From assembly GCA_964406775.1 (NCBI GenBank), contig CAYOSW010000005.1:1362-65361 (forward strand): DNA of 64,000 bases, in the 5' to 3' direction. Under the pieces are notes generated by a model, which searched no databases, had not been told where the DNA came from, and saw only the letters and a list, made by a program, of their open reading frames with translations. Origin of the DNA: an uncultured Gammaproteobacteria bacterium (lineage in GTDB: Bacteria > Patescibacteriota > Microgenomatia > Daviesbacterales > UBA10151). This document shows, one piece after another, positions 2,915 through 45,028 of the stretch (position 1 is the stretch's first letter; every line of letters begins with the position of its first letter). The position numbers were made by a program, and so were the translations under genes.

Positions 2915-4243
2915 CTATGAAAGGAATTTATCGTAGTTTTTCTCAATCATTTTGCTTTCAAACTGCTTGGCAGTATCTAAAATTACCGAAACCACGATCA
3001 AAAGAGATGTTCCTCCGACAACTAAAGTTGAGATTCCGGTAAAGGAGGAGATTACCGAAGGCATAACCGCAATTGTTCCCAGGAATATCGCACCGGCCAA
3101 AGTTATCCTTACCAGGATGTAGTTTAAATACGAGGCCGTTGCACTGCCCGGTCTGATACCCGGAACAAACCCACCGTATTTTTTAATTTCGTCTGCAATC
3201 TTGGTCGGATTAAAAACTACCGCAGTATAAAAATAAGTAAATCCGATAACCAAAAGGAAATAGGTAAGGTTATATGCTATTGATTCCGGCTGGAAGTTCT
3301 GCACCAAAAATCTGCCGATATTTTGCAGAACCGGAACAGGGGACTGGGCTAAAAACTGACTCCCGAAAGAGGGGAGCAGTACTAAGGAAATTGCAAAAAT
3401 AATCGGAATAACACCGGTTTGGTTAACGCGCAGAGGCAGGTATGTTTGGACCTGGCTCATTCTCCGGCCGGCCGAAAAACGCCTGGCGTAATGAATCTGG
3501 ATTTGTCTGCGTCCTTCGTTAATAAATACAATTGCTGCGGTTACGAGCAATCCGACTGCTACAAAAATTAGAATATTTAAAAGTTGGGACTGCTCTACAA
3601 TTGATACAGTCTGGAATAAAACAACCGGCGCTCTTGCCAAAATACCGACTAAAATCAAAATGGAAATACCGTTGCCGATTCCGTACTCGGTTAAAAGCTC
3701 ACCCAGCCACATTGTAAACACCGTACCTGCAACCATAGCAACAATGATTGAAAGAATCGCCAAAGGAGTTCCGGCCTCAACCAGACCCTGATTTTTCAAA
3801 AGCGTATACATACCGACCGACTGAATAACTGCCAAAGGAATCGTCAGGAACCGGGTATATTGATTAATCTTCTGACGGCCCATCTCCCCTTCTTTGCTCA
3901 TTTCTTCAAGCTTCGGGAAAACCATAGTTAAAAGCTGCATAATAATCGAGGCGTTAATATACGGATTCAAACCGAGCGCCAAAACGGAAAAGTTAGTTAA
4001 GGTTCCTCCGGAAAAAATATCCAAAAGCCCGAGGAGCTGGTTACTGCCGAAAAGCTGACGGATGCCTTCAACATTAATACCCGCAATCGGGATCTGTGCT
4101 GACAGACGGAAAACAAAAATGATAATGGCGGTAATGATTAATTTGCGGCGGAGCTCCGGAATTTTTAAGGCATTTAATATCGGTTGAATTAAACTAGCCA
4201 ACTTTGCCTCCTGCAGTTTCGATCTTTTCTTTGACCTTCGCAC
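2915..4243 (-). CDS. secY: preprotein translocase subunit SecY
   Basis: 442 aa polytopic membrane ORF located between rplO and adk. Confidence 0.93.
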
Positions 4244-4631
4244 TTACAGGAATTTCTACGACTAATCCTTTTACATTAAGCTCTCCCTTATTTAATACTT
4301 TTACTCCTCTTTTCAGCTTGCCCCGTCCGGATACAAGTCCGGCTTCAACCAGGGTTTCGATGCTTACTGTTGAATTAGTCTTGAATTTGTTTAAATCTTC
4401 GAGTGAAATCACAACCGGTGTCGGATCGGCTTTTTTATTTCCCCAACCGCGGACAAACGGAAGTTTCTTATATAAAGGCAAGCTTCCTCCGATGAAGGCT
4501 GCAGGAATTTTTCCGCGGGCTTTTTGTCCCTTTGAACCGCGTCCCCCGGTCTTACCTTTTCCTGACCCGGTTCCCCGGCCTAAACGCTTTTTACTTCTTT
4601 CAATTGTTTTAGGTAATTCGCTTAATTTCAT
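4194..4631 (-). CDS. rplO: 50S ribosomal protein L15
   Basis: 145 aa ORF with a Gly/Arg/Lys-rich N-terminal region ([20 protein letters not shown]) typical of L15. Position upstream of secY. Confidence 0.9.
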
Positions 4632-9889: not shown

Positions 9890-10339
9890 TTATTTAGCTT
9901 CCTCTTTCTTTTCTTCTTTTCTATCTACAATTTCCGCAACTTTTATCGCCGCAGGCGGCAAGCTTTGCTTATCCTTAACTTCATTTCTCGATACCTTAAT
10001 TTTCTTCTCCAACTTAACTTCATCAGTCAAAACTATTTTGATATGACTTGTTCTCTTTTTATAAGGCCTGCCGCGTCCGCGTCCTGCAGTTCCGACTCTG
10101 TAACGGCGCATTTTCAAACCTTCGTTAATCTCAACCGACTTAAAACTTAAGCCTTCTTTTGATCCGGCGTTGGCAATAACGGTCTTAATCGCCTGAGCCA
10201 AAGGTCTGGCTGCCGCATTAGATGTAAACTGCAAAACATCCAAAGCCGCATACGGATCCATTTTTCTGACCATCGTCGCAACCAGCCGCAATTTGCGGGG
10301 CGAGTTCTGTATATTCTTTTGTATTGTTATAAATTCCAT
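9890..10339 (-). CDS. rplV: 50S ribosomal protein L22 with C-terminal extension
   Basis: 149 aa ORF. L22 core (SPRK.RLVA..VR) followed by a K/E-rich tail. Confidence 0.9.
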   Translation of the reverse strand: MEFITIQKNIQNSPRKLRLVATMVRKMDPYAALDVLQFTSNAAARPLAQAIKTVIANAGSKEGLSFKSVEINEGLKMRRYRVGTAGRGRGRPYKKRTSHIKIVLTDEVKLEKKIKVSRNEVKDKQSLPPAAIKVAEIVDRKEEKKEEAK

Positions 10340-15915: not shown

Positions 15916-16542
15916 GTGTCAAAGTTTCGTCCAGCAAGCCGGTCAGGGTTCATCTATAGTTTCCGTATGTCAGCCCAACCGGAAGCAGCAGTCGGCTATA
16001 GCCGTTTATTTCAATACTCCGCTACGGCAGAAGAGAGAGGTATAGTTGCAGACCAACCTGCACCGGAAATAAATCCGTCAGCACTTTCGGAGCTTTTAAG
16101 AGATGCTCTCCCCATCGGCCGGCCCGGTGAACTGGAACTCAGACACCCTTTCAGAGTTATTATTACGGCCTTATCGGTGACGGGAGACGATTACGCTGCC
16201 TACTTACCCGATGTTGAATCCGCACTCGATAAAACAGATACCGGACAGGTTACCGAAATTGGCGTCAGCGTTACTTTAGCCGGATCCGATATTCAGCCTG
16301 ACCGCGAAGCAGGACCTTTTATTAATCCGCTTCGTCTTTATGACGGAAAAACCGGATCCCTGGGTTTAAGCACAGTTACAGCTAACTTCCTCCTGGCTGC
16401 CGGAATAAGAAGACAGGCCGGAAGGATAAGAACGGGGTTTTCCCAGCCTCACGATACCCGGGATATGTACGGCTTTGCAAAACAAAGGACCGACCGGATG
16501 ATTGCCGGGCAGATTGAACCGGTTATCAGACTTAATACTTGA
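15916..16542 (+). CDS. hypothetical protein (A/G/R/P-rich, no recognisable domain), GC-richer than its surroundings
   Basis: 208 aa uninterrupted ORF in a segment that is visibly GC-richer than the flanking genes. No motif recognised. Inserted between tuf and fusA, on the strand opposite to both. Confidence 0.45.
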   Translation: MSKFRPASRSGFIYSFRMSAQPEAAVGYSRLFQYSATAEERGIVADQPAPEINPSALSELLRDALPIGRPGELELRHPFRVIITALSVTGDDYAAYLPDVESALDKTDTGQVTEIGVSVTLAGSDIQPDREAGPFINPLRLYDGKTGSLGLSTVTANFLLAAGIRRQAGRIRTGFSQPHDTRDMYGFAKQRTDRMIAGQIEPVIRLNT

Positions 16543-16574
16543 TAATCTTCTTATATATTTATATGGTTAAGTAA

Positions 16575-16952
16575 GTGAAGCATCAGTCAGGAATTGCCCA
16601 GGTTTATTTTCTTTTGATTATTCTTGCCGGAATTGCGATTTCTGTTTTCCTTGTTCAATATACTCAGGTTTTTAAACCCAAAGCTTATTCAGACGATGAG
16701 CTTGCCGCTTATTGCCAGGAAATTACCCAAAACAATACACCTAAAGGAGCCGGTCTTATCAGAATACCTGCCACGGCTCTGGACGGAAGATTTCAGGTCA
16801 TTGATGACTCGGTGGTTGACACCCAAAGCGGAGCGGCATTCTTTTACCTTGATTCATCAGACGGAACTCTGCGGGTACGGCGGAATCTTGATAATACCAA
16901 CGATAACGAAGAGAATAACCAGTTTATTGAAGTTTATATAGATAACCCTTAG
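16575..16952 (+). CDS. small membrane-anchored or secreted protein
   Basis: 125 aa ORF with an N-terminal hydrophobic helix (VYFLLIILAGIAISVFLV) and a polar, Asn/Asp-rich C-terminus. Ends 6 nt before the fusA stop, so the two genes are convergent. Confidence 0.45.
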   Translation: MKHQSGIAQVYFLLIILAGIAISVFLVQYTQVFKPKAYSDDELAAYCQEITQNNTPKGAGLIRIPATALDGRFQVIDDSVVDTQSGAAFFYLDSSDGTLRVRRNLDNTNDNEENNQFIEVYIDNP

Positions 16953-16957
16953 AAGAT

Positions 16958-19099
16958 TTAACTTTCAACTCTTCCGGTAAATCCGGAATCAGCAATAACT
17001 TTTTGAGTGATATTTGAAGGAACGGGCTCGTAATGTGATGGTTCAATATATGCTGTTGCTCTTCCCTGGGACATTGAACGGATAGCGGTAATATAGCCAG
17101 AAAGTTCAGCCAAAGGAACGAAGGCGTTGATAACAGTTGCATTTCCCCTCTTTTCGGTTCCCTGGATCTGGGCTCTTTTTGAGGATAAGTCTCCGATTAA
17201 ATCTCCCATAAATTCATCAGGAGTTGAAACCTCAACCTTCATTATCGGCTCAAGGAGAATCAAACCTGCTTTTTTGGCAGCTTCGGAAAGTCCTAAGGAA
17301 CCGGCAATCTTAAAGGCCATTTCCGAAGAATCAACATCGTGGAATGATCCGTCGTAAACCGTAACTTTAATATCCACAACCGGGAATCCTGCAAGCAGTC
17401 CGGTATCTTCTTTTTCTTCAACACCCTTACCGATAGGCGCAATGAATTCTTTCGGAATAGCTCCTCCGACGATTTCGGAAACGAATTCACGTCCGGTTCC
17501 TCTCGGGAGAGGCTCAATTCTGAGTAAACAGTGACCGTACTGACCGCGTCCTCCGGTTTGGCGCACATACTTACCTTCTCCTGTTGCCGGAAGAGTTATT
17601 GTTTCTTTATAGGCAACCTGAGGATCTCCGACGTTGGCTTCAACTTTAAATTCCCTCTTCATACGGTCAACGATAATTTCCAAATGAAGCTCACCCATTC
17701 CGGAAATTATTGTCTGTCCGGTTTCAGGGTTGGCTTTAACTCTGAAAGTCGGATCTTCTTCTGCCAGTCTTTGCAGAGCGAGTCCTAATTTTTCCTGATC
17801 GGATTTGGTTTTAGGCTCTATTGCAAGTGAGATAACGGGTTCTGCAAAGTTGATCGATTCCAAAACTAACGGATTTCCTTCATCAACAATTGAATCTCCG
17901 GTAATTGTATCTTTAAGACCCACAACCGCAACGATTTCTCCAGCATATGCTTCATCAATTTCTTCACGGTCGTTGGCGTGCATTAAAAGCACCCGGCCAA
18001 TACGTTCTTTGATTTGTTTTGTAGAATTGTAAATAGTTGATCCGGCTTTTAATGTTCCGGAATAAACTCTGACATAAGTTAAACGGCCGACGTGAGGATC
18101 AATCTGAATTTTAAAAGCGAGAGCCCCGAGAGGTGCATCTTTTGTGTTTGACTGAGTTACTTCTTCTCCTGTTTGGGAATTTTTACCCTTAACGTTCGGG
18201 ATATCAAGAGGTGAAGGTAAAAATTCCATAACCGCATCGAGCATTGGTTGCACACCTTTATTGCGCAGTGATGAGCCTGCCATAACCGGAACGATCTTTT
18301 TAGCGATAACTGCAGCTCTTAACGCTTTTTTAAGCTCATCGATTGAGATCTCTTCACCGTTTAAGTATTTCTCGAGCAGAACCTCGTCAGTTGAGGCAAT
18401 CTCCTCAACTAATTTCTCGCGGTGTTTTTTAACTTCATCAACCATATCGGCCGGAATGGGCTGTTCCTCAAATTTAGCGCCGGTCTGATCACCGAGCCAA
18501 ATCCAAGCCTTTTCGGTTAAAAGATCAACTATCCCTTTGAAATCGTTTTCAACACCAATAGGTAAGTTATAAGGAAGAGCATTCGCACCCAGGCGGTCAC
18601 GGGCGGATTGGATAGTTCCCAAAAAGTCAGCGCCTAAAACATCCATTTTATTGGAGAAGGCAATCAAAGGTACACCGTATTTATCTGCCTGTCTCCAGAC
18701 AGTTTCGGTTTGGGACTGAACACCTGAAGCCGAATCAAGAACTATGACTCCCCCGTCAAGCACACGAAGCGAACGCTCAACCTCAACTGTAAAGTCAACG
18801 TGACCGGGAGTATCGATTAAGTTAATCCGGAATTCTTCATCTTTGAAAGGACCGGATTTGGGAGTCCAGAAAGTGGTAACAGCTGCGGATACGATAGTAA
18901 TACCGCGCTCGCGCTCCTGTTCCATCCAATCGGTGGTGGTTGTACCTTCATCAATATCACCGATCTTATAAGTACGTCCGGTATAAAAAAGAATACGTTC
19001 GGTGGTAGTAGTTTTTCCCGCATCAATGTGGGCAATGATCCCGATATTTCTGATACGGTCTAACGGAAAATCGCGTTTTGTTTTCGTTGTAACTGCCAT
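16958..19099 (-). CDS. fusA: elongation factor G
   Basis: 713 aa ORF with [20 protein letters not shown] and NKMD motifs and the EF-G domain IV/V region. Confidence 0.97.
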
Positions 19100-19138: not shown

Positions 19139-19399
19139 CTAAGATTGATGAGCTGTAGAATTCTCCGGATTACCCTCAAGATCTTTGAGTATTTTCTTGG
19201 TTTCGCCGATACGGGCGGATAGAACTTCCCCCTGTTCCGTCAGCATCTGATAGGCTGCATTCTCGCTATTATCGCCCATATCCGTAGCGTCGCCTCTTTG
19301 TTCCATAATTGAGGCATACTCCTTCTCAAGAGTTGCGAGCTTCTCGCTCCACATTTTTACTTTTTCTTGCTTTATCTTATTGTTTGCCATAAAACACAA
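19139..19399 (-). CDS. stand-alone GreA/GreB N-terminal coiled-coil domain protein (mini-Gre)
   Basis: 86 aa ORF carrying the Gre finger-tip motif GDNSENAAY (compare canonical GDLSENAEY) within a predicted coiled coil. There is no C-terminal FKBP-like domain. The true start is probably MANNKIKQ. Confidence 0.6.
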   Translation of the reverse strand: MCFMANNKIKQEKVKMWSEKLATLEKEYASIMEQRGDATDMGDNSENAAYQMLTEQGEVLSARIGETKKILKDLEGNPENSTAHQS

Positions 19400-19527
19400 A
19401 GCCCCCTTGAGATTAATTCTTGGGGGTATTTGATGGTTACATACTAAAAAAGATTTCCGGAAATGTCAAACCTTAAGAGAACGATTGAATCCCTCTATAT
19501 CTGCTGTGCGTGTGGTAAAATTGCCGA

Positions 19528-20826
19528 ATGGAATTTGAGGTAATTGAACAAACTTATCCTGAAAACTTCCGCTCGGACATAACGCGCGAGCTCGGCGACC
19601 ATATTAACAAACGCCACAGCATCGTCTTTATAGGTATGCGCAGGGTCGGCATATCTAATTTCTTAAGGTTTTTTCTGTATCACAAACAACTCCGCCAAAA
19701 AACTTCGGCAGACAAACACCTCCTTATCGCCATCGATTTAAACGATCTTATCGAACGGACTATTCCTTCTTTTTGGGTATTAACGTTAAAGAGAGTTCTT
19801 GATACCGTCGAAGGGTCCGATTTTGCCCCTAAAACTAAAAAATATATCGAGAATCTATTTCTTGACGGTATCCAGTCCAAAAATACTTTTCTTCTTATAG
19901 AAAATATTAAAAAAGCTCTAAGTAAAATTATTTCCGAAGGTGTTTTCCCGACAATTTTTTTCATCCGGTTTGACAGGATTTCCGAATCCGCAACAGCCGA
20001 TTTTCTGGCAAATCTCGAAGGACTTAAAAGCTCAACCCACGGCAAGTTAAGCTATGTGTTCACAACTTCGCGCGGATTAAACTCCATCTCGCCAAAAGTC
20101 TTCTCGCACACTTCTCTTTCTCTTGCCGAAACGGAGATATTTTTAAAACCGGCAAGCCCGGAAGATCTTCAGGTAATTTGCGATGCCTATATCAAGAGAT
20201 TCGGGCTCCGGATTTCCGCGGAAACGGAGAAAGAATTAATTAAGCTTACCGGAGGCTACGTCCAATACCTCCAGCTGGCTCTAATTACCTTAAACGAGCC
20301 TGAGGTGAATAATAAAAAAATCAGTAATCTGTCCGAACTCTTAGAAAACGACGAGCGGATCAAACTTCAATCGGAAGAACTTTGGGAAGGCCTTACCGGA
20401 GATGAACAGGAAATCCTGCTTAAAGTTGTTGAGGGTGAAAAACTTACGGAAAAAGATTTAAAAGACAATAAATATTTATCAGACAGCGGATTTATGGTTA
20501 AACTCAAAAACGGCTTCAATATTTTCAGTCCGCTTTTTGAAAAGTTCCTGAAGAAAAAAGCCGAAAAAGGGGAGGGGAGTAACGGGAAAATCGATCTCTC
20601 CAAAAAAGAGCATCTGCTATTTTCCTTCCTTAAAGACAATTTAGGTGAGATTTGTGAGCGGGAAGCCATAATTGAGGCCGTCTGGCCGGAAGAGGAGGCT
20701 TTAGGGGTCTCTGATTGGGCAATTGACCGCCTTGTCGCCCGCCTGCGCAAAAAGATTAAGGATGAAGGCGAATTTGAAATAGTAACAATAAAAACCCGGG
20801 GATTTAAATTAATAGGAAAAAATTAA
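19528..20826 (+). CDS. STAND/AAA-like NTPase with degenerate P-loop fused to a C-terminal OmpR/PhoB-type winged-helix DNA-binding domain
   Basis: 432 aa ORF. The N-terminal region has IVFIGMRRVGISNF, which fits GxxxxGxS with Ile in the Lys position, and a Walker B-like LLIAIDLND. The C-terminus (EREAIIEAVWPEE...DWAIDRLVARLRKKIKDEG.FEIVTIKTRGFKLIG) matches the trans_reg_C wHTH. Confidence 0.55.
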   Translation: MEFEVIEQTYPENFRSDITRELGDHINKRHSIVFIGMRRVGISNFLRFFLYHKQLRQKTSADKHLLIAIDLNDLIERTIPSFWVLTLKRVLDTVEGSDFAPKTKKYIENLFLDGIQSKNTFLLIENIKKALSKIISEGVFPTIFFIRFDRISESATADFLANLEGLKSSTHGKLSYVFTTSRGLNSISPKVFSHTSLSLAETEIFLKPASPEDLQVICDAYIKRFGLRISAETEKELIKLTGGYVQYLQLALITLNEPEVNNKKISNLSELLENDERIKLQSEELWEGLTGDEQEILLKVVEGEKLTEKDLKDNKYLSDSGFMVKLKNGFNIFSPLFEKFLKKKAEKGEGSNGKIDLSKKEHLLFSFLKDNLGEICEREAIIEAVWPEEEALGVSDWAIDRLVARLRKKIKDEGEFEIVTIKTRGFKLIGKN

Positions 20827-21161
20827 CTGTAATTTCTGGTTCTGTCCAGATATGGCGCTTCTTTCCAATCGTGACTTATTCTTCTTCCTGAAAAGCTGGA
20901 GTCTGTAGCTACAGATAAACTTCTGAAATGGTGGCCGTCAGCACCGTGCTCACGTTCTATACCATCTTCATCAGGATATTTGTCTCCATAGTCAGCCCAA
21001 ACAGTCACGGCAGTTTTAGCCAGTTCCGCCGGCTCATCCCAATTTATTTTCGCTCCGTAGGGTAAAACCTCAAAACCTAAACCTTTAGGCTTCAAATGGT
21101 GAAACCTTTCTCTTGTAGTTCTTCGTTCTGTCCCGGGTCTGCCTGCGATATGTTCTTTCAT
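20823..21161 (-). CDS. hypothetical protein (His/Asp/Gly-rich)
   Basis: 112 aa ORF in a relatively GC-rich segment. No recognisable motif. First gene after the rpsG 3' remnant. Confidence 0.35.
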   Translation of the reverse strand: MKEHIAGRPGTERRTTRERFHHLKPKGLGFEVLPYGAKINWDEPAELAKTAVTVWADYGDKYPDEDGIEREHGADGHHFRSLSVATDSSFSGRRISHDWKEAPYLDRTRNYS

Positions 21162-21197
21162 AAGAATTTTGGGTTTTTGTTGGCGGAAGTTTCTGCA

Positions 21198-21225
21198 CCT
21201 ACCATCTAAAGTGGGCGCAGGCCTT
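21198..21225 (-). repeat. diverged duplicate of the rpsG 3' terminus (last 8 codons plus stop)
   Basis: The minus strand reads AAG GCC TGC GCC CAC TTT AGA TGG TAG, encoding KACAHFRW*. The true rpsG end at 21291-21317 reads AAG GCT TTT GCG CAT TTT AGA TGG TAA, encoding KAFAHFRW*. That is 19 of 27 nt identical, and most of the differences fall at third-codon positions. Confidence 0.5.
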
Positions 21226-21290
21226 AAAAGATTGTAGTTCTACAAGACGACGATCATTGTAGAAGCGAAAATCTCGCAAGGCTTTGCGCT

Positions 21291-22318: not shown

Positions 22319-25300
22319 TTAGGATGGTTCCATTGCGGCCCGTTCAGGGCTTGTTGGAATCAACCGGCCAATAATAACATTTTCTTTCAGTCCAATCAAC
22401 TTGTCGATCTTACCTGAAGCTGCTGCTTCCGAAAGAACTGTTGTTGTTTCAACGAATGAAGCTGCTGACAGGAAGCTTTCGGTCTGGAGTGAAGCTCTGG
22501 TTATACCCAAAACGATTACTCCTGCAGTTGCCGGCTCTCCGCCCTCTGCCAAGACTCTGGTGTTCTCTTCTTCGAATCTGGTTTTATTTACAACTTCTCC
22601 GGGCAATAATACTGTATCGCCTTGAGATTCGATTCTGACTTTATCACTCATCTTGCGGACGATAATTTCAAAGTGCTTTTCATTAATATGCACACCCTGG
22701 GATTCGTAAACTTCTTTAGCTGCGTCAACAATGTATCTTTGAGCTTCTTTAAGTCCTTTTACTCTTAAGACTTCTTTAATATCCAAATGTCCTGCGGCAA
22801 GTTGAGTTCCTGCGGAAATCAACTGACCGTCTTCAACCAAGAGATCTGCTGTGATCGGAATTGCATATTCCCTTTCTTCGTGAGGCTTGGTTGTGGTTCT
22901 GACCCTGATAACTCTTCCTGTTTCGGTGTTAGAGATAGTAACTTTTCCGGCAATTTCCGAAATCGGGCTGGTTGATTTTGGAGTTCTGGCCTCAAAAAGT
23001 TCTTCAACACGGGGCAAACCTTGTGTAATATCGATACCGACAACTCCTCCTGAGTGGAAAGTACGCATTGTGAGCTGTGTACCGGGCTCTCCGATAGCCT
23101 GAGCTGCAACAACTCCGACAGGTGTTCCGAGACCTACCGGTTTTCTGGATGACAGATCAAGACCATAGCAGGCTGCACAAATTCCATATCTTGCTTCGCA
23201 GGTAAGAGGAGCGCGCACTAAAACTTCAGTAACTTCACTCTTGTAAATTGCTTCTACTTCCGGCTCTTCAAGATAAATTCCATCCGGAAGAAGCTGTTTT
23301 TTAGTTTTCGGATCTACAACTTTTCCGAGCAACTTGCGTCCCAGGAATCTGGTTGAATTTGATGCCGGATTATCGTGAATAACTTCAACAGGGAATCCGT
23401 TTTGGGTTCCGCAGTCCTCAATTCTGACGATCATATCGTGGGATACATCTACCAATCTTCTGGTCAGATATCCTGCATCGGCGGTTCTGATAGCACGGTC
23501 TGCAACTCCCTTTCTCGCTCCTCTACAGGAAGTGAAGTACTCGAACACTCCGAGTCCTTCACGGTAGTTGGATTTTGTAGGAAGTTCCACGATTTTACCT
23601 GTCGGATCAACTGAGAATCCTCTCATTCCGGCAGTTTGCGCGATCTGAGCTGTAGTTGCACGGGCTCCTCCGGACTGCATAATGATCTGGATAGGATTAT
23701 CAGGATCGATTGCCGCAAATGTTTTTCTGACAATTTCGTCTCCAATTCTGGTCCAGACTTCCTGGGAAAGAGCGCGTTTTTCTTCGCTGGTAATGATTTC
23801 CTTTTTAAAGTTATCTTCAATATCGGCAATTTCTTTATCACCCTTAGCAATTAAGGATTTCTTCTCAGGGATAATTTTGTTGTCAAAAATACCGACTGAA
23901 AGTCCGGAAATTGTTGCGCCCCAGAAACCGAATTCTTTAATATCGTCAATCAGTTGAGCAACTTCATCTTTGGTGAAGGCTTTAAATGCCTGCATTATGA
24001 TTCTTGAGATAACTCCGGCGTTAATTGTTTCGTTGATAAAGCGGAGTGATTCAGGCAGGAAGTTGTTAAAAATAATTCTTCCGACTGTTGTTTCGATAAT
24101 TGCATCGCCGATTTTAGCTTTAATCGGAGCTCTTAAATCAAGATTTGCTGTTTGGAATGCAAATTCGGCTTCTTCTCTTGAGTAAACCTTATCGGTAAGC
24201 ACTTTTGTCTTATCAATCGAAGTTACGAAGTAAGAACCCAATGCCATTTCACGGTTAGGAACGTTGATAGGTGATGAATTCGCAGGGCGCAGAATGTTTT
24301 CTTTTGCCATCATCAGATTTTTAGCTTCTTCTTTGGCTTTTTCGGACAAAGGTACGTGAACAGCCATTTGGTCTCCGTCAAAGTCGGCATTAAATCCGGC
24401 ACAGATACAAGGGTGAATCTGGATTGCGTTTCCGTCAATTAAGATCGGGAAGAATGCCTGAATACCTAATCTGTGCAGGGTAGGCGCACGGTTGATCAGA
24501 ACCGGGTGATCTTTGATAACTTCTTCCAAAATATCCCAAACCTCCGGAGGTCTGAATTCCAAAACATTTTTAGCTCCTTTTACGTTTGAAGCCAGGCCTC
24601 TTGAGATAACTTCGCGCAGTACGAAAGGCTTAAACATCTCAAGCGCCATTTCTTTAGGAAGTCCGACCTGAGCCAATTTAAGTTTAGGACCGACGATAAT
24701 AACCGAACGTCCTGAGTAATCTACCCTTTTTCCGAGCAAATTCTGTCTGAATCTTCCCTGTTTTCCTCTCAACATCTCGGAAAGTGATCTTAACTGGTGG
24801 GTTCCGGCTCTTCTGGTTGTTCTGGATGAAGAATCGATTAATGAATCGACTGCTTCCTGAAGCATTCTTTTCTCGTTTCTTAAAATAATTTCAGGAGCAC
24901 CGAGATCAATAAGTCTTTTCAAACGGTTATTTCTGTTGATAACTCTTCTGTAGAGATCGTTTAAGTCCGAAGTTGCAAATCTTCCTCCCGGTAATTGCAC
25001 CATAGGGCGCAAGTCAGGCGGGAGAACAGGCAATATTGTCAAAACCATTGAAGCCGGAGAAATTGTTGATTTTCTCATTCCTTCAACGAGTCTTAATCTT
25101 TTAGTGGCTTTGATATGGCGCTGACCTGAAGATTTTGAAACCTCGACTCTAAGCTCTGAAGCTAATTTATCCAGATCAATCTTATTTAATACCTCAAGCA
25201 ATGCTTCAGCTCCCATCTTAACTTCAAGGAAGTCTGCAACTCCGTACTCATCAAGTTTGAAGTATTCATCCTCCGAAAGAAGTTTCATCGGATTAATATT

Positions 25301-26005
25301 TTTAACCAATTCGGAAACTGTTTTGTAAATTTCCTCAAGCTGAGCGAGCTCTACCTGGTTTTGTTCTTTGAGCTGAGCAATTTTTCTTCTTGCTTCGATT
25401 TGGAATTCGGCAGCCTGGAGCTCGAATTTCTCGTCATTGCCGATTTTCTTCTTAAGTTCTTTTAATTCTCCGGTAGTTACGTCTTCCGCTTCCTTGATTG
25501 TTTTTTCCAAAGCTTCTTTTGAAGCGTCCTGTTTTTCGCCGAGCTGTTTTTCAAGTTTTTCGATAGCTTCAGCTTTTTTATCAGTATCAATTCCGGTAAC
25601 CAGGTATGAAGCAAAGTAAATTATTGCCTCAAGATTCTTCATAGTTAAATCAAGAATCAGGGATAATTTGCTCGGCGCACCTTTAACAAACCAGATATGG
25701 GCCACAGGCGAAGCTAAAGTAATATGACCCATTCTCTCGCGTCTTACTTTGGATTGTGTGACCTCAACTCCGCACTTGTCGCAGATAACACCACGGTAAC
25801 GGATTCTTTTATATTTTCCGCAGTAACATTCCCAATCCTTTGTCGGGCCGAAAATATTTTCAGCAAATAATCCGTCTTTTTCAGCTTTCAAAGTCCGGTA
25901 ATTAATTGTTTCCGGGCGTGTAACCTCACCGAATGACCAGCTTCTGATAATATCGGGTGAAGCGATAGCTACTTTAAGTTGATCAAAATCGAGTAAATTA
26001 TTCAT
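22319..26005 (-). CDS. rpoC: DNA-directed RNA polymerase subunit beta'
   Basis: 1228 aa ORF with the N-terminal zinc finger (CYCGKYKRIRYRGVICDKCGVEV), the NADFDGDQM catalytic loop and the trigger-loop region. Confidence 0.97.
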   Translation of the reverse strand: MNNLLDFDQLKVAIASPDIIRSWSFGEVTRPETINYRTLKAEKDGLFAENIFGPTKDWECYCGKYKRIRYRGVICDKCGVEVTQSKVRRERMGHITLASPVAHIWFVKGAPSKLSLILDLTMKNLEAIIYFASYLVTGIDTDKKAEAIEKLEKQLGEKQDASKEALEKTIKEAEDVTTGELKELKKKIGNDEKFELQAAEFQIEARRKIAQLKEQNQVELAQLEEIYKTVSELVKNINPMKLLSEDEYFKLDEYGVADFLEVKMGAEALLEVLNKIDLDKLASELRVEVSKSSGQRHIKATKRLRLVEGMRKSTISPASMVLTILPVLPPDLRPMVQLPGGRFATSDLNDLYRRVINRNNRLKRLIDLGAPEIILRNEKRMLQEAVDSLIDSSSRTTRRAGTHQLRSLSEMLRGKQGRFRQNLLGKRVDYSGRSVIIVGPKLKLAQVGLPKEMALEMFKPFVLREVISRGLASNVKGAKNVLEFRPPEVWDILEEVIKDHPVLINRAPTLHRLGIQAFFPILIDGNAIQIHPCICAGFNADFDGDQMAVHVPLSEKAKEEAKNLMMAKENILRPANSSPINVPNREMALGSYFVTSIDKTKVLTDKVYSREEAEFAFQTANLDLRAPIKAKIGDAIIETTVGRIIFNNFLPESLRFINETINAGVISRIIMQAFKAFTKDEVAQLIDDIKEFGFWGATISGLSVGIFDNKIIPEKKSLIAKGDKEIADIEDNFKKEIITSEEKRALSQEVWTRIGDEIVRKTFAAIDPDNPIQIIMQSGGARATTAQIAQTAGMRGFSVDPTGKIVELPTKSNYREGLGVFEYFTSCRGARKGVADRAIRTADAGYLTRRLVDVSHDMIVRIEDCGTQNGFPVEVIHDNPASNSTRFLGRKLLGKVVDPKTKKQLLPDGIYLEEPEVEAIYKSEVTEVLVRAPLTCEARYGICAACYGLDLSSRKPVGLGTPVGVVAAQAIGEPGTQLTMRTFHSGGVVGIDITQGLPRVEELFEARTPKSTSPISEIAGKVTISNTETGRVIRVRTTTKPHEEREYAIPITADLLVEDGQLISAGTQLAAGHLDIKEVLRVKGLKEAQRYIVDAAKEVYESQGVHINEKHFEIIVRKMSDKVRIESQGDTVLLPGEVVNKTRFEEENTRVLAEGGEPATAGVIVLGITRASLQTESFLSAASFVETTTVLSEAAASGKIDKLIGLKENVIIGRLIPTSPERAAMEPS

Positions 26006-29000
26006 CTTCTCCTCCTTCTTTTTCCATTGCCTGCGCAGCTAAATCTGCCGCTTGAGCTTCAGAATTATCGTCGTTTTCAGCGTCCGCGTCAACCAGTCCT
26101 GCATCTTCTTCCTGCGCCTCAACTGCTTCCTTCTTAGTTTCAGGTTCACCCTGCGCATCAAGTACTTCCATAGGGCCTGTTTCAGCGTTCAATTCCGAAT
26201 CAACTCCGACTTCTCCGACGCCCAAAGCTTCTTTTGCAGCCTCAATCGCAGCGGTTTCTGTAGATGACTCTTCTTTAACCTCTTCTTCATTAACTTCCTT
26301 GACACCCATCGGGATAACTTCAATACCCAAGCTCTGAAGTTCTTTTACAAGCACTTTAAACGATTCAGGAATTAAGGCTTGTGGAATTTCAGTTCCTTTA
26401 ATTATTGCCTCGAATGCTTTAGCACGTCCGACAACATCATCGGATTTTAAGGTCAACATTTCCTGAAGTACATTCGCAGCTCCGTATGCTTCCAGTGCCC
26501 AAACTTCCATTTCTCCGAGTCTTTGTCCTCCCATTTGGGCTTTTCCTCCCAAAGGCTGTTGTGTAACGAGTGAGTAAGGTCCAGTCGAACGGGCGTGAGT
26601 TTTATCCTCAACCATATGGATAAGCTTCAGGAAGTAAGCAATACCCACAACAACATCCTGTTTGAAGTATTCGCCGGTTCTTCCGTCAATCAACTTTGAT
26701 TTACCTGAAACAGGCAAGTTAGCTTTTTGGAGCTGTTCGATTAAAACTTCTTCGGGGATTTTCTCAAAAACCGGAGCTGCAACTTTAAATCCGAGTTTTT
26801 TAGCCGCAAGTCCTAAATGCGCCTCAAGAAGCTGTCCCAAGTTCATACGGGAAAGCACTGTAACCGAAGAAATAATGATATCCAAAGGTGTACCGTCTTC
26901 CAAATGAGGCATATCGGCAGCGGCAACGATTTTTGAGATAACACCTTTGTTTCCGTGTCTACCTGCGAGCTTGTCTCCGGCTGTAACTTTACGCAGTTGT
27001 GCTACTTTTACTTTGATTCTTTGTAAAACTCCGGCTCCAAGATCATCTCCTGCTTCGCGGGAAAGGATTTCGATACCGATAACTGTTCCTTTTTCTCCGT
27101 GAGGCATTCTTAAAGAGGTATCGCGGACTTCTTTAGCTTTTTCTCCGAAGATCGCACGGAGCAACCTCTCTTCTGCTGTAAGCTCGGTCTCTCCTTTGGG
27201 CTGAACTTTACCGACTAAAATATCACCGGGAGCTACTTCCGCACCGATTCTGACGATACCTGTCTCATCAAGATTTGCCAAAGCTTCTTCGGAAACGTTA
27301 GGAATATCAGGAGTTACTTCATCCGGACCGAGTTTTGTTTCAACAACGTCGGTGTTATATTCTTCGATGTGGATCGAAGACAAAACATCCTGTTTAACTA
27401 ATCTATCGGAAATAACGATAGCGTCTTCGTAACCGAGTCCGTCATAGCTCATATAACCGATCAGTAAATTAGTTCCGAGGGATAATTCTCCGTTGTCTGT
27501 TGAGGTTCCTTCAATCAAAAGATCGTCGGTTTTGATTTTCTGACCGGGAACAACTGCCGGCTTTTGTGAATAACAAGTCATAGAAGGGGAGTTGACGAAT
27601 TTTTTAACTTTAAATTCCTGCTTCTGTCCTTTTCCGGAAAGCATAATTTTTTCTCCGTCAGCGTAAGTGATCTCTCCGTCAAAAGGAGCTCTGACTGTTC
27701 TTGCCATAGTGTCCGCAATCATTGTTTCCATTCCCGTTCCGATAACCGGAGCCTGAGGCAAAAGAAGCGGTACGGCCTGACACTGCATATGAGTACCCAT
27801 CAAAGCACGGTTTGCATCATCGTGAGCCAAAAACGGAATTAAGGAAGCTGAAGTTCCGACGATTTGCTGAGGTGAGATATCGATTAAATTAACTTTTTCA
27901 ACTTCGGTTTCAAAAAAGCTTCCGAGGTAACGTACCGGAACTCTGGGCTGGTTAATAAAACCTTTATCGTCCATCTCAACAGTTGCTTCGGTAATATAAA
28001 GATCTTCCTCATCATCTGCAGTAAGATAGATTATTTCATCTGTTGCGCGGGGCTTACCTTTTTCGAGAACTACTTTTCTGTAAGGAGTTTCCAAAAATCC
28101 GTATTCGTTAATTCTTGCGTACAAAGCTAAATATGTAACCAAACCGATGTTCGGTCCTTCAGGAGATCTGATAGGATCGATTCTTCCGTACTGGGAATGG
28201 TTAATATCACGGATTGAGAAGCTGGCTCTGTCTCTTGAGATACCGCCGGTACCTGTAACTGACAATCTTCTCAAATGGTCAATTTCGGAGAGGGGATTGG
28301 TCTGATCTAAAATCTGGGAAAGCTGTGAACTTCTGAAGAATTCGTTGATAGCCGCAATTACCGGGCGGGCATTAACTAATCCTGCAGCTGTAATCTCCTG
28401 GTCAAGAGATAAAAGACTCATTCTCTCTTTGATTACTCTTTCGAGTCTTTGCAGACCAATCCAGAAAGCATTTTGAGCAACTAATTCTCCTACCATTCTG
28501 ACCCTGCGGTTGCCTAAATGATCGATATCGTCGGTTTTTCCGTTGCCGTTAGCTAAATTGATCAGGTATTTGAGAGTTGCAACAATATCTTCCTTGGTTA
28601 AAATCCAATTTTCAGGAGAATTAGGAATATCCAAACCCAATCTCTTGTTGATTTTGAATCTTCCGACACGGGTTAAATTATATCTTCTGGCGTTAAAGAA
28701 CATGTTTTGAAGTAAAGACTTTGCAGTTTCCAAAACAACAGGGTCTCCGGGACGCATTTTGCGGAAGATCTCAAGAAGGGCTTCGTTTTGATCCTTGGTC
28801 GGATCTTTTGCCATTGTTGATTCGATATAGCGGTGTTCGCCGTTATTATCAACGCTTTCAAAATTGGTTCTGATTTCATCTTCGGAAAGACCCAAAGCGC
28901 GGAGCAAGGTTGTTGCGGCAAATTTTCTTCTACGGTCGATCTTAACGGTTAGAACATCCGAGCGGGAAACTCCGAATTCAAGCCAGGAACCGTGCTGAGG

Positions 29001-29486
29001 TCTGATTTCAGCACCGTAAAGTCTGCGTCCGGTAATAGGATCATCTGAGGCAGAAAAAAACGCTCCGGGGGAGCGTACTATCTGATTGATTATTACCCTT
29101 TCGACTCCGTTAATAATAAATGTACCTTTTTCGGTCATTTGCGGAATGTCGCCGAGGAATGCTTCCTGTTTATATGTATCGTTGTTTTGAAGGTTTGTTA
29201 AAACTACGCGGACTTTTAAAGGCGCATCATATGACATTCCCTTAACTTTGCACTGATCAGGGGTAAATCTGGGCTTGCCGAAGAAGTATTCTCCGAATTC
29301 AAGCTTCCAGTTTTTTCCGGTAAAATCCGAAACGGGAGTTATTTCATTAAGTAGTGTTCCGATTCCTTCATCGAGGAATTTTTGGTAAGAATCGCGTTGC
29401 AGGCGTGTAAGGTCTAGTTTTTTGACTTGTGTGGGTCTTTTTCCCCAGTAAAGTCTGCCGTTAATAGTATTAGACGCTGTTTGCAT
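25998..29486 (-). CDS. rpoB: DNA-directed RNA polymerase subunit beta, with roughly 100 aa acidic C-terminal tail
   Basis: 1162 aa ORF with conserved beta motifs (RFGEMEVWALEAYGAA..LQE.LT.KSDD). The family normally ends near IPESFKVLVKELQSLGIEV. Here it is followed by an E/D/A-rich tail and overlaps rpoC by 8 nt. Confidence 0.97.
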   Translation of the reverse strand: MQTASNTINGRLYWGKRPTQVKKLDLTRLQRDSYQKFLDEGIGTLLNEITPVSDFTGKNWKLEFGEYFFGKPRFTPDQCKVKGMSYDAPLKVRVVLTNLQNNDTYKQEAFLGDIPQMTEKGTFIINGVERVIINQIVRSPGAFFSASDDPITGRRLYGAEIRPQHGSWLEFGVSRSDVLTVKIDRRRKFAATTLLRALGLSEDEIRTNFESVDNNGEHRYIESTMAKDPTKDQNEALLEIFRKMRPGDPVVLETAKSLLQNMFFNARRYNLTRVGRFKINKRLGLDIPNSPENWILTKEDIVATLKYLINLANGNGKTDDIDHLGNRRVRMVGELVAQNAFWIGLQRLERVIKERMSLLSLDQEITAAGLVNARPVIAAINEFFRSSQLSQILDQTNPLSEIDHLRRLSVTGTGGISRDRASFSIRDINHSQYGRIDPIRSPEGPNIGLVTYLALYARINEYGFLETPYRKVVLEKGKPRATDEIIYLTADDEEDLYITEATVEMDDKGFINQPRVPVRYLGSFFETEVEKVNLIDISPQQIVGTSASLIPFLAHDDANRALMGTHMQCQAVPLLLPQAPVIGTGMETMIADTMARTVRAPFDGEITYADGEKIMLSGKGQKQEFKVKKFVNSPSMTCYSQKPAVVPGQKIKTDDLLIEGTSTDNGELSLGTNLLIGYMSYDGLGYEDAIVISDRLVKQDVLSSIHIEEYNTDVVETKLGPDEVTPDIPNVSEEALANLDETGIVRIGAEVAPGDILVGKVQPKGETELTAEERLLRAIFGEKAKEVRDTSLRMPHGEKGTVIGIEILSREAGDDLGAGVLQRIKVKVAQLRKVTAGDKLAGRHGNKGVISKIVAAADMPHLEDGTPLDIIISSVTVLSRMNLGQLLEAHLGLAAKKLGFKVAAPVFEKIPEEVLIEQLQKANLPVSGKSKLIDGRTGEYFKQDVVVGIAYFLKLIHMVEDKTHARSTGPYSLVTQQPLGGKAQMGGQRLGEMEVWALEAYGAANVLQEMLTLKSDDVVGRAKAFEAIIKGTEIPQALIPESFKVLVKELQSLGIEVIPMGVKEVNEEEVKEESSTETAAIEAAKEALGVGEVGVDSELNAETGPMEVLDAQGEPETKKEAVEAQEEDAGLVDADAENDDNSEAQAADLAAQAMEKEGGEDE

Positions 29487-42412: not shown

Positions 42413-42414
42413 TG

Positions 42415-42486
42415 TTGCGGGGAATGGATTCGAACCATTGACCTTGAGATTATGAGCCTCACGAGCTACCACTGCTCTACCCCGCG
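42415..42486 (-). tRNA. tRNA-Met (anticodon CAU), initiator-like
   Basis: The reverse complement folds as a cloverleaf CGCGGGG-TA-GAGC-AGTGGTA-GCTC-G-TGAGG-CTCATAA-TCTCA-AGGTC-AATGG-TTCGAAT-CCATT-CCCCGCA-A. It has a C1:A72 mismatch as in initiator tRNA. CCA is not encoded. Confidence 0.85.
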
Positions 42487-44953: not shown

Positions 44954-45028
44954 GCGCGGATAGCTCAGCGGTAGAGCGGTTGTCTTATACACAATTGGTC
45001 CCAGGTTCAAATCCTGGTCCGCGCACCA
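44954..45028 (+). tRNA. tRNA-Ile with anticodon UAU
   Basis: Cloverleaf GCGCGGA-TA-GCTC-AGCGGTA-GAGC-G-GTTGT-CTTATAC-ACAAT-TGGTC-CCAGG-TTCAAAT-CCTGG-TCCGCGC-A-CCA. It has a 7-bp acceptor stem, U33 and A37 flanking anticodon TAT, and an encoded CCA. Confidence 0.8.

Follow-up and report, generated by a model that had tools for sequence, protein, structure and literature searches.

A small gene in a 64-kb stretch of contig CAYOSW010000005.1 (the window) encodes a protein of 83 amino acids (aa) which, judged from its sequence, is a complete N-terminal coiled-coil domain of the Gre transcription factors followed by a short disordered tail. We refer to this protein as mini-Gre. Comparison with related genomes identifies it as a lineage-wide, anchor-less Gre at a fixed position in the str operon: it agrees with GreA and GreB in its N-terminal domain (NTD) and acidic tip, and departs from them in having no C-terminal domain and in scoring below the equivalog cut-offs. 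In reviews, every bacterial secondary-channel factor is described as pairing a coiled coil with a globular domain that binds RNA polymerase (RNAP) (PMC4598747). Our literature search returned nothing relevant on natural NTD-only Gre proteins, or on GreA in the candidate phyla radiation (CPR), Patescibacteria or Daviesbacteria.

We began from a preliminary description of the window that had placed an 86-aa protein in an open reading frame (ORF) on the minus strand (19139..19399). This ORF exists, but the protein is shorter: the N-termini of its homologues (M-x-N-N-K-L-K-Q-E-K...) and an identical 83-aa database entry (P0001) assign the start to the ATG at 19390 instead of the TTG at 19399. The resulting sequence, MANNKIKQEKVKMWSEKLATLEKEYASIMEQRGDATDMGDNSENAAYQMLTEQGEVLSARIGETKKILKDLEGNPENSTAHQS, has no cysteine in its 83 residues. 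It carries the acidic Gre tip motif GDNSENAAY, as had been described, and both column alignment and hhalign place D40 and E43 on the catalytic D41 and E44 of E. coli GreA. The asparagine at position 41 is unusual, since the family consensus is leucine (GDLxENAAY). Coordinates of all main features are collected in Table 1; L001 to L020 denote the loci that we fetched for comparison.

Profile searches and a structure model both assign mini-Gre to the Gre NTD. Pfam family PF03449 (GreA_GreB_N) matched it at 27.3 bits (E 4.3e-6; gathering cut-off, 24.5 bits) over profile positions 4-68 of 71. The best NCBIfam matches were GreA models, over their N-terminal ~70 positions only, and by these scores mini-Gre is more GreA-like than GreB-like (GreB models, 12-13 bits). 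The whole-protein GreA/GreB cut-offs of NCBIfam were far from reached (best, TIGR01462 at 28.9 bits versus 139), as is to be expected when only half of the protein is present. When we compared a profile of 34 mini-Gre family members with one of 11 full-length GreA proteins (E. coli, Shapirobacteria, and other Patescibacteria), hhalign aligned mini-Gre residues 4-71 to E. coli GreA 4-72, with a probability of 98.95% and an E-value of 1e-17 over 68 columns. The NTD of E. coli GreA comprises residues 1-75 (PMC7104715); hence, mini-Gre corresponds to the whole NTD. From the 34-sequence alignment, AlphaFold2 predicted a two-helix hairpin (pLDDT 86.5) with helices at residues 2-36 and 45-72, a tip loop at 37-44, and a disordered tail at 77-83. 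The stand-alone Gre coiled coil that had been proposed is thus borne out by a Pfam score above the cut-off, by the profile-profile match to GreA, and by a structure prediction, the check suggested at the time, which gives a Gre-like hairpin with the acidic residues at its tip.

A Foldseek search of the PDB with the mini-Gre model returned E. coli GreA (1grj) as the top match (rmsd 1.1 Å over 59 columns, 27% identity), with GreB (2p4v) also ranking high. None of the E-values was significant, since so generic a fold as the helical hairpin matches many coiled coils, and seryl-tRNA synthetase arms, among others, scored similarly; we therefore take the fold result as corroboration and not as proof. 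Searching the PDB by sequence with the single mini-Gre protein gave a chance match only. PADLOC and PHROGs searches gave nothing for mini-Gre, and neither Pfam nor NCBIfam contained a DksA/TraR match at E ≤ 1.

We then looked for the C-terminal domain. A hidden Markov model (HMM) of full-length GreA, built from four Patescibacteria GreA proteins and that of E. coli, was searched unfiltered against stop-to-stop fragments of at least 25 aa in six frames. The mini-Gre ORF was the sole match in the 64 kb of the window; it covered HMM positions 17-84, with nothing past ~87, and no Gre C-domain was found in any frame. The flanks of 12 mini-Gre loci likewise contained none, and among the 21 loci searched only genuine full-length greA loci gave C-domain matches. 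Where precomputed Pfam annotation is present for the 96 clusters of mini-Gre homologues described below, it lists PF03449 only and never PF01272. The gap to fusA is short (39 nt in the window) and therefore leaves no space for a frameshifted remnant of the C-domain. The absence of the globular domain, asserted from the start, is therefore seen in the window and in 12 related loci, and the same loci gave no sign of a Gre C-domain downstream in another frame, which had been named as the mark of a pseudogene. The six-frame search and the conservation data rule out that mini-Gre is a pseudogene or a fragment of greA; by sequence, it is a maintained gene.

Mini-Gre belongs to a family of uniformly short proteins. 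Among 5.8 billion proteins we found at least 96 clusters (at 90% identity) of homologues, every one of them 69-98 aa long and 57-93% identical. When we searched 1.84 billion representatives at 50% identity exhaustively with a profile, we obtained 52 matches, of which the best ~21 were all short (48-126 aa), while full-length GreA (149-151 aa) entered the list only from E ~2e-7 downward. Automatic database names vary, from [quoted passage not shown] in UniRef and "GreA/GreB family factor" in JGI to "hypothetical protein" at NCBI. Eight species-level copies gave a pN of 0.13-0.38 against a saturated pS of 0.6-1.0, so mini-Gre is under purifying selection. The tip is its most strongly conserved part: G39, D40, E43, N44, and Y47 are invariant in 34/34 homologues, and the stretch GEAAxMGDLxENAAYQM around it persists in copies of 48-57% overall identity. 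The full set of invariants in the close family is W14, K17, L21, Y25, M29, R32, G39, D40, E43, N44, Y47, L50, T51, E52, E55, S58, and R60.

Some members depart from this pattern. P0110 and P0111 are short family members with degenerate tips (NLGDDSALQ and ENGEDEDSALFQ) in which three residues are deleted and the D-x-x-E-N-x-x-Y motif is missing; these may be derivatives without catalytic activity. Locus L020 encodes tandem paralogues between rpsG and fusA (3943..4263 and 4253..4495, plus strand, overlapping by 11 nt). The first copy (106 aa) is of the window type. The second (80 aa) has the tip GGDWHENAEFEDAE and belongs to a small separate family of 6 clusters (P0113 and P0270-P0274); D..E is present in both tips. 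The tandem copies indicate that the family diversifies on its own, loosely like GreA and GreB. At L017, a short frame (MNNNKLKQEKYS*, ~9900..9945, plus strand) that resembles the N-terminus of a second, truncated copy lies upstream of the live mini-Gre gene at 10001, with a hairpin and T-run further upstream of it.

A genome scan found seven species-level genomes with a mini-Gre of 73-84 aa. Three are titled Candidatus Daviesbacteria, one "Patescibacteria group", and three "uncultured Gammaproteobacteria". The last three are metagenome-assembled genomes (L004, CAYRCR010000009.1; L005, CAZZHC010000003.1; L007, CAZLKE010000012.1). Their RpoC and EF-G are 68-86% identical to those of the window, and the L007 mini-Gre is identical to the Daviesbacteria entries KKQ67442.1 and OGE22922.1; we therefore consider the Gammaproteobacteria label wrong. 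EF-G of the window is itself 94% identical to that of L001 and 89% identical to that of L002, which places the window in a genome of the Daviesbacteria lineage (Microgenomates group, Patescibacteria/CPR). Daviesbacteria are groundwater bacteria with tiny genomes.

Relatives of this lineage have ordinary GreA proteins. Other Microgenomates (Shapirobacteria and others) encode a GreA of 149-152 aa with both Pfam domains, and other Patescibacteria one of 164-173 aa whose tip (AEMGDFSENAAYQMAKG) closely resembles that of mini-Gre. The full-length greA genes of the related Microgenomates lie at unrelated loci outside the str operon, so mini-Gre is not a simple in-place truncation of them and would be a derived, domain-loss form in a new, fixed slot. 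A search with the closest full-length GreA (P0117) returned only Shapirobacteria, Microgenomates, and Patescibacteria names and no Daviesbacteria, among the ~10 of 120 matches that were named.

The position of mini-Gre is constant. Wherever the flanking sequence of a locus is long enough, the genes run rpoB-rpoC-rpsL-rpsG-[0 to ~5 kb of variable genes]-miniGre-fusA-...-tuf-rpsJ. In the window, rpoB, rpoC, rpsL, and rpsG lie upstream, fusA and tuf downstream, and a divergent gene for a 432-aa protein alongside, matching the neighborhood that had been outlined. fusA, encoding EF-G, is the constant downstream partner. The mini-Gre stop and the fusA start overlap or are 1-2 nt apart in L003, L004, L005, and L007; the gap is 39-73 nt in the window, L002, and L006, and an extra gene intervenes in L001 and L018. 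From this arrangement, mini-Gre is probably co-transcribed with fusA.

A sigma-70-like promoter and a leader hairpin precede the gene. In the window, a GC-stem hairpin (19426..19404) comes after the promoter, then a T-rich run, and then the ATG. The same order, TTGAC(T/A)-N17-TAxxAT, 8-30 nt, a hairpin with T5-T8, and the start codon, recurs in L001-L007, L018, and L019. Reading the stems locus by locus, we found different sequences (ACCCCC/GGGGGT, CCTCGCCTC/GAGGCGGGG, GCCTCC/GGAGGT, and AGACTCCC/GGGGTCT), and the leader is thus conserved in structure and not in sequence. RNAalifold on a MAFFT alignment was uninformative, as the loops are unalignable, and Rfam gave nothing in the mini-Gre region. 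The hairpin is present even where the upstream gene is divergent (the window, L001, and L002), and therefore is not merely the terminator of the upstream gene.

The order promoter-terminator-gene is that of an attenuator and suggests control of mini-Gre and probably of fusA. There is a parallel in E. coli, where two thirds of greA transcripts end at a leader terminator as GraL RNAs and GreA autoregulation needs this terminator (PMC2836576, PMC6829880); the greA/rnk family also ranks seventh among gene families with 5' attenuators (PMC2965389). That the leader terminator was inherited from greA is not supported, as the promoter-hairpin-T-run layout was not seen at six full-length CPR greA genes (L008-L011, L013, and L015). 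The likeness to GraL is therefore one of analogy only, and that mini-Gre might act on its own leader is speculation.

Gre factors divide their labor between two domains. The NTD enters the RNAP secondary channel and brings two acidic residues to the active site, while the C-terminal domain docks on the beta' rim helices, and full activity depends on having both (PMC4598747, PMC3132773, PMC7104715, PMC7527559). The determinants of cleavage and anti-arrest activity are in the NTD, with the C-terminal domain serving RNAP binding (PMC7104715, PMC3132773, PMC4598747). We predict from the sequence that mini-Gre is a minimal secondary-channel factor that stimulates transcript cleavage, a function for which we judge the case evenly balanced. 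On this model, a GreA-type coiled coil with an intact tip would have been kept while the globular domain was lost in evolution. From its own promoter, and through the leader terminator, mini-Gre would be transcribed with fusA inside the rpoBC-str-S10 supercluster, and we propose from this location that it is made in step with RNAP and the translation machinery. The hairpin would go into the secondary channel, where D40 and E43 at its tip would help to place the second Mg2+ together with the attacking water; transcripts that have backtracked or contain a misincorporated nucleotide would be cut and elongation would restart, as with GreA. The missing rim-helix anchor may be offset by abundance, if the str-operon context entails the high expression that we infer, by the strongly conserved hairpin surface, or by both. 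Two features support this prediction: constraint is strongest precisely at the catalytic tip, and the hairpin, in contrast to that of Rnk, has its full length.

Several points weigh against this prediction. Canonical Gre factors bind RNAP mainly through the C-domain and reach full activity only with both domains, and a single substitution in the C-domain, S127E in mycobacterial GreA, abolishes function (PMC3132773, PMC7104715); specific binding by E. coli GreA also requires both domains (PMC7527559). We found no conserved extra motif in the 34-sequence alignment that might replace the anchor, the C-terminal tail being variable and predicted to be disordered. The non-cleaving inhibitors Gfh1 and Rv3788 keep and need their acidic tip residues as well (PMC4598747), so conservation of the tip is no proof of cleavage activity. 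Finally, a full-length GreA could also persist in carrier genomes.

We therefore weighed four other explanations. Foremost among them, mini-Gre might be a non-cleaving competitor or modulator of the secondary channel, like Gfh1, Rv3788, or DksA/TraR, beside a canonical GreA encoded elsewhere in the genome; a finger-only protein would transiently occupy the channel and tune or inhibit RNAP. Gfh1 and Rv3788 inhibit instead of cleaving despite an acidic tip (PMC4598747, PMC3132773), a few family members (P0110 and P0111) have degenerate tips, and the normal GreA of other Microgenomates sits at unrelated loci, so the ancestral copy could persist with mini-Gre as an extra paralogue in the str operon. 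We nonetheless find this explanation rather unlikely. CPR genomes are small and seldom keep redundant factors, D40, E43, N44, and Y47 are invariant in the main family, and no Daviesbacteria appeared among the few named full-length GreA matches. In addition, the known competitors owe their potency to tight binding by the C-domain that mini-Gre lacks (PMC4598747). That same lack could mean that mini-Gre is half of a split or partner-dependent factor, docked by a free Gre C-domain or an unrelated adaptor, given that binding by canonical Gre factors depends on the C-domain (PMC7104715, PMC7527559). The usual docking site, the beta' rim helices, is still there in Daviesbacteria RpoC. In the part aligned to E. 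coli beta' 625-725, the rim helices are much more diverged from E. coli (26-30% identity) than RpoC overall (48-49%), and a ~14-residue stretch directly after the rim helices is absent relative to E. coli. However, neither the window nor the 12 related loci encode a Gre C-domain in any frame, and fusA and rpsG are the only conserved neighbors, with the genes in the gap differing from locus to locus; we regard a split factor as improbable.

The constancy of fusA as the sole invariant neighbor, with overlapping or 1-2 nt junctions in four loci, raises a different explanation, namely that a Gre-like hairpin was reused as a generic coiled-coil module in a translation-related role with EF-G or the ribosome. 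The generic nature of the fold, with seryl-tRNA synthetase arms among the Foldseek matches at similar scores, would allow this. We give it only a slim chance, as the strongest constraint lies exactly on the Gre catalytic tip motif GDLxENAAY, for which we know of no role outside the RNAP active site. Operons that mix transcription and translation genes are also common, and this cluster itself begins with rpoB-rpoC. That mini-Gre is a decaying greA remnant or an annotation artefact is suggested by its shortness, its missing domain, its scores far under the NCBIfam GreA cut-offs, and its "hypothetical protein" label. To this we attach hardly any weight: at least 96 clusters agree in length and frame, pN is low where pS is saturated, the promoter, leader, position, and coupling to fusA are conserved, and no remnant of the C-domain lies downstream. 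Hence, we retain the prediction of a cleavage-stimulating factor, at the level of confidence given above.

Comparison with known systems sets out what is particular to mini-Gre. GreA and GreB (PF03449 plus PF01272) share with it an N-terminal antiparallel coiled coil of the same length and the two acidic tip residues, but the C-terminal domain that docks on the rim helices is theirs alone. Their genes also differ in place, with greA of related CPR lineages outside the str operon and mini-Gre upstream of fusA within it. Closest in extent is the E. coli GreA-NTD laboratory construct of Koulich et al. 1997/1998 (stop after codon 75), with nearly the same boundaries as mini-Gre, whose helices end at 72 and are followed by a short tail. 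According to PMC7527559 and PMC7104715, this construct carries the cleavage and anti-arrest determinants and is impaired in RNAP binding. The construct is artificial, whereas mini-Gre is natural and conserved, with family-specific invariants (W14, K17, Y25, R32, T51, E52, E55, S58, and R60).

Other secondary-channel factors resemble mini-Gre in part. Gfh1 of Thermus and Rv3788 of M. tuberculosis have a Gre-fold coiled coil with an acidic tip, and are possible analogues if mini-Gre inhibits (PMC4598747), but both keep the C-domain and bind RNAP tightly by it. TraR, a truncated DksA homologue of 73 aa, is a precedent for a half-size secondary-channel factor that acts on RNAP (PMC2613031). It belongs to an unrelated sequence family and keeps its zinc-finger globular part, whereas mini-Gre has neither cysteines nor a globular part and thus neither the C4 zinc finger nor the DksA-type globular domain that defines the DksA/TraR family. 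Rnk, a member of the Gre superfamily, has a reduced architecture like mini-Gre (PMC4598747), but the reduction is the reverse: Rnk has retained the C-domain, and its coiled coil falls short of the active site, while mini-Gre has a full-length coiled coil and no C-domain. The Gre-like arm of HelD places a Gre-type coiled coil in the secondary channel without a Gre C-domain (PMC7749165); it is anchored by a large helicase-like body, and mini-Gre is free-standing.

Table 1. Main features of the window, in window coordinates.
Feature	Position	Strand	Basis
fusA (EF-G), constant downstream partner	16958..19099	-	ORF and similarity; Pfam EF-G domains in L017-L020
mini-Gre coding sequence, 83 aa plus stop	19139..19390	-	ORF list, identical database protein P0001, Pfam, hhalign, AlphaFold2, pN/pS
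Tip-motif codons, G39-D40-N-S-E43-N44-A-A-Y47	19250..19276	-	Sequence; column alignment with full-length GreA
Leader hairpin CCCCCAAG...CTCAAGGGGG with a T-rich run after it, in the form of an intrinsic terminator	19391..19426	-	Sequence and fold
Sigma-70-like promoter of the mini-Gre/fusA unit, TTGACA, 17-nt spacer, TAGTAT	19441..19469	-	Consensus scan, 10/12 matches
Divergent 432-aa gene, C-terminal OmpR/PhoB-type winged helix	19528..20826	+	Pfam Trans_reg_C, 50.7 bits; PDB matches
RpoC	22319..26005	-	Rim-helix region aligned to E. coli beta' 625-725
RpoB	25998..29486		Upstream neighbor

The divergent 432-aa gene had been described as an NTPase with a winged helix that shares a promoter region with mini-Gre. 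Pfam finds the winged helix alone (residues 354-428), with no match in the N-terminal ~340 aa; PDB sequence matches are to response-regulator DNA-binding domains only. The NTPase label has no family match behind it: the P-loop-like GMRRVGIS is without the lysine, and the only other match is a weak one in PADLOC to the candidate family PDC-S01 at residues 15-121. The start codons of the two genes are 137 nt apart, and mini-Gre does lie between fusA and the winged-helix gene as described. A meaningful link between them is not supported, as the 432-aa gene is missing at L003, L006, and L007, where mini-Gre has its own promoter. It adjoins mini-Gre in the window, L002, L017, and L019, and is further off in L018. 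From these comparisons, the 432-aa gene is best seen as variable cargo of the gap between rpsG and mini-Gre and not as a functional partner.

This gap (window 19400..21290, with equivalents in L017, L018, and L019) is a variable insertion spot in the otherwise conserved rpoBC-str cluster. Its cargo includes the ~430-aa Trans_reg_C protein and a 112-aa ORF (window 20823..21161, also in L017), and in relatives a peptidase M19, a His_Phos_1 protein, and others. The usual adjacency of fusA and tuf is also broken in the window, by two opposite-strand ORFs of 208 and 125 aa (15916..16952, plus strand); relatives have different small genes at this spot, e.g., one of 134 aa in L017 and one of 143 aa in L018. 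Elsewhere in the window we observed tRNA-Met(CAT) (42414..42486, minus strand) and a tRNA-Ile with anticodon TAT (UAU) (44954..45028, plus strand), the latter an uncommon bacterial way of reading AUA.

A natural Gre that consists of the coiled coil only asks how much of Gre function needs the anchor, how a free hairpin finds and stays in the channel, and whether streamlined CPR bacteria have re-engineered the contacts between RNAP and its factors. With a size of 83 aa, mini-Gre is easy to make and suited to standard cleavage and pause assays. Should the carriers also have a normal GreA, mini-Gre would shrink to a paralogous modulator. We tentatively entertain, with somewhat more doubt than belief, that it is the sole Gre of Daviesbacteria and a fully functional cleavage factor without a globular anchor. 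If so, the C-domain, generally seen as the chief RNAP-binding element in every bacterial secondary-channel factor, would be dispensable in a natural lineage; another mode of docking would be implied, along the channel wall or via lineage-specific changes in the beta' rim helices; and mini-Gre would define the minimal Gre. The constant location of the gene, heading the fusA-tuf unit, together with the conserved promoter and leader terminator, suggests a regulatory link between transcription rescue and the supply of translation factors. If this holds, the capacity for RNAP rescue could be coupled to translation capacity through feedback of the leader terminator on the co-transcribed gene for EF-G.

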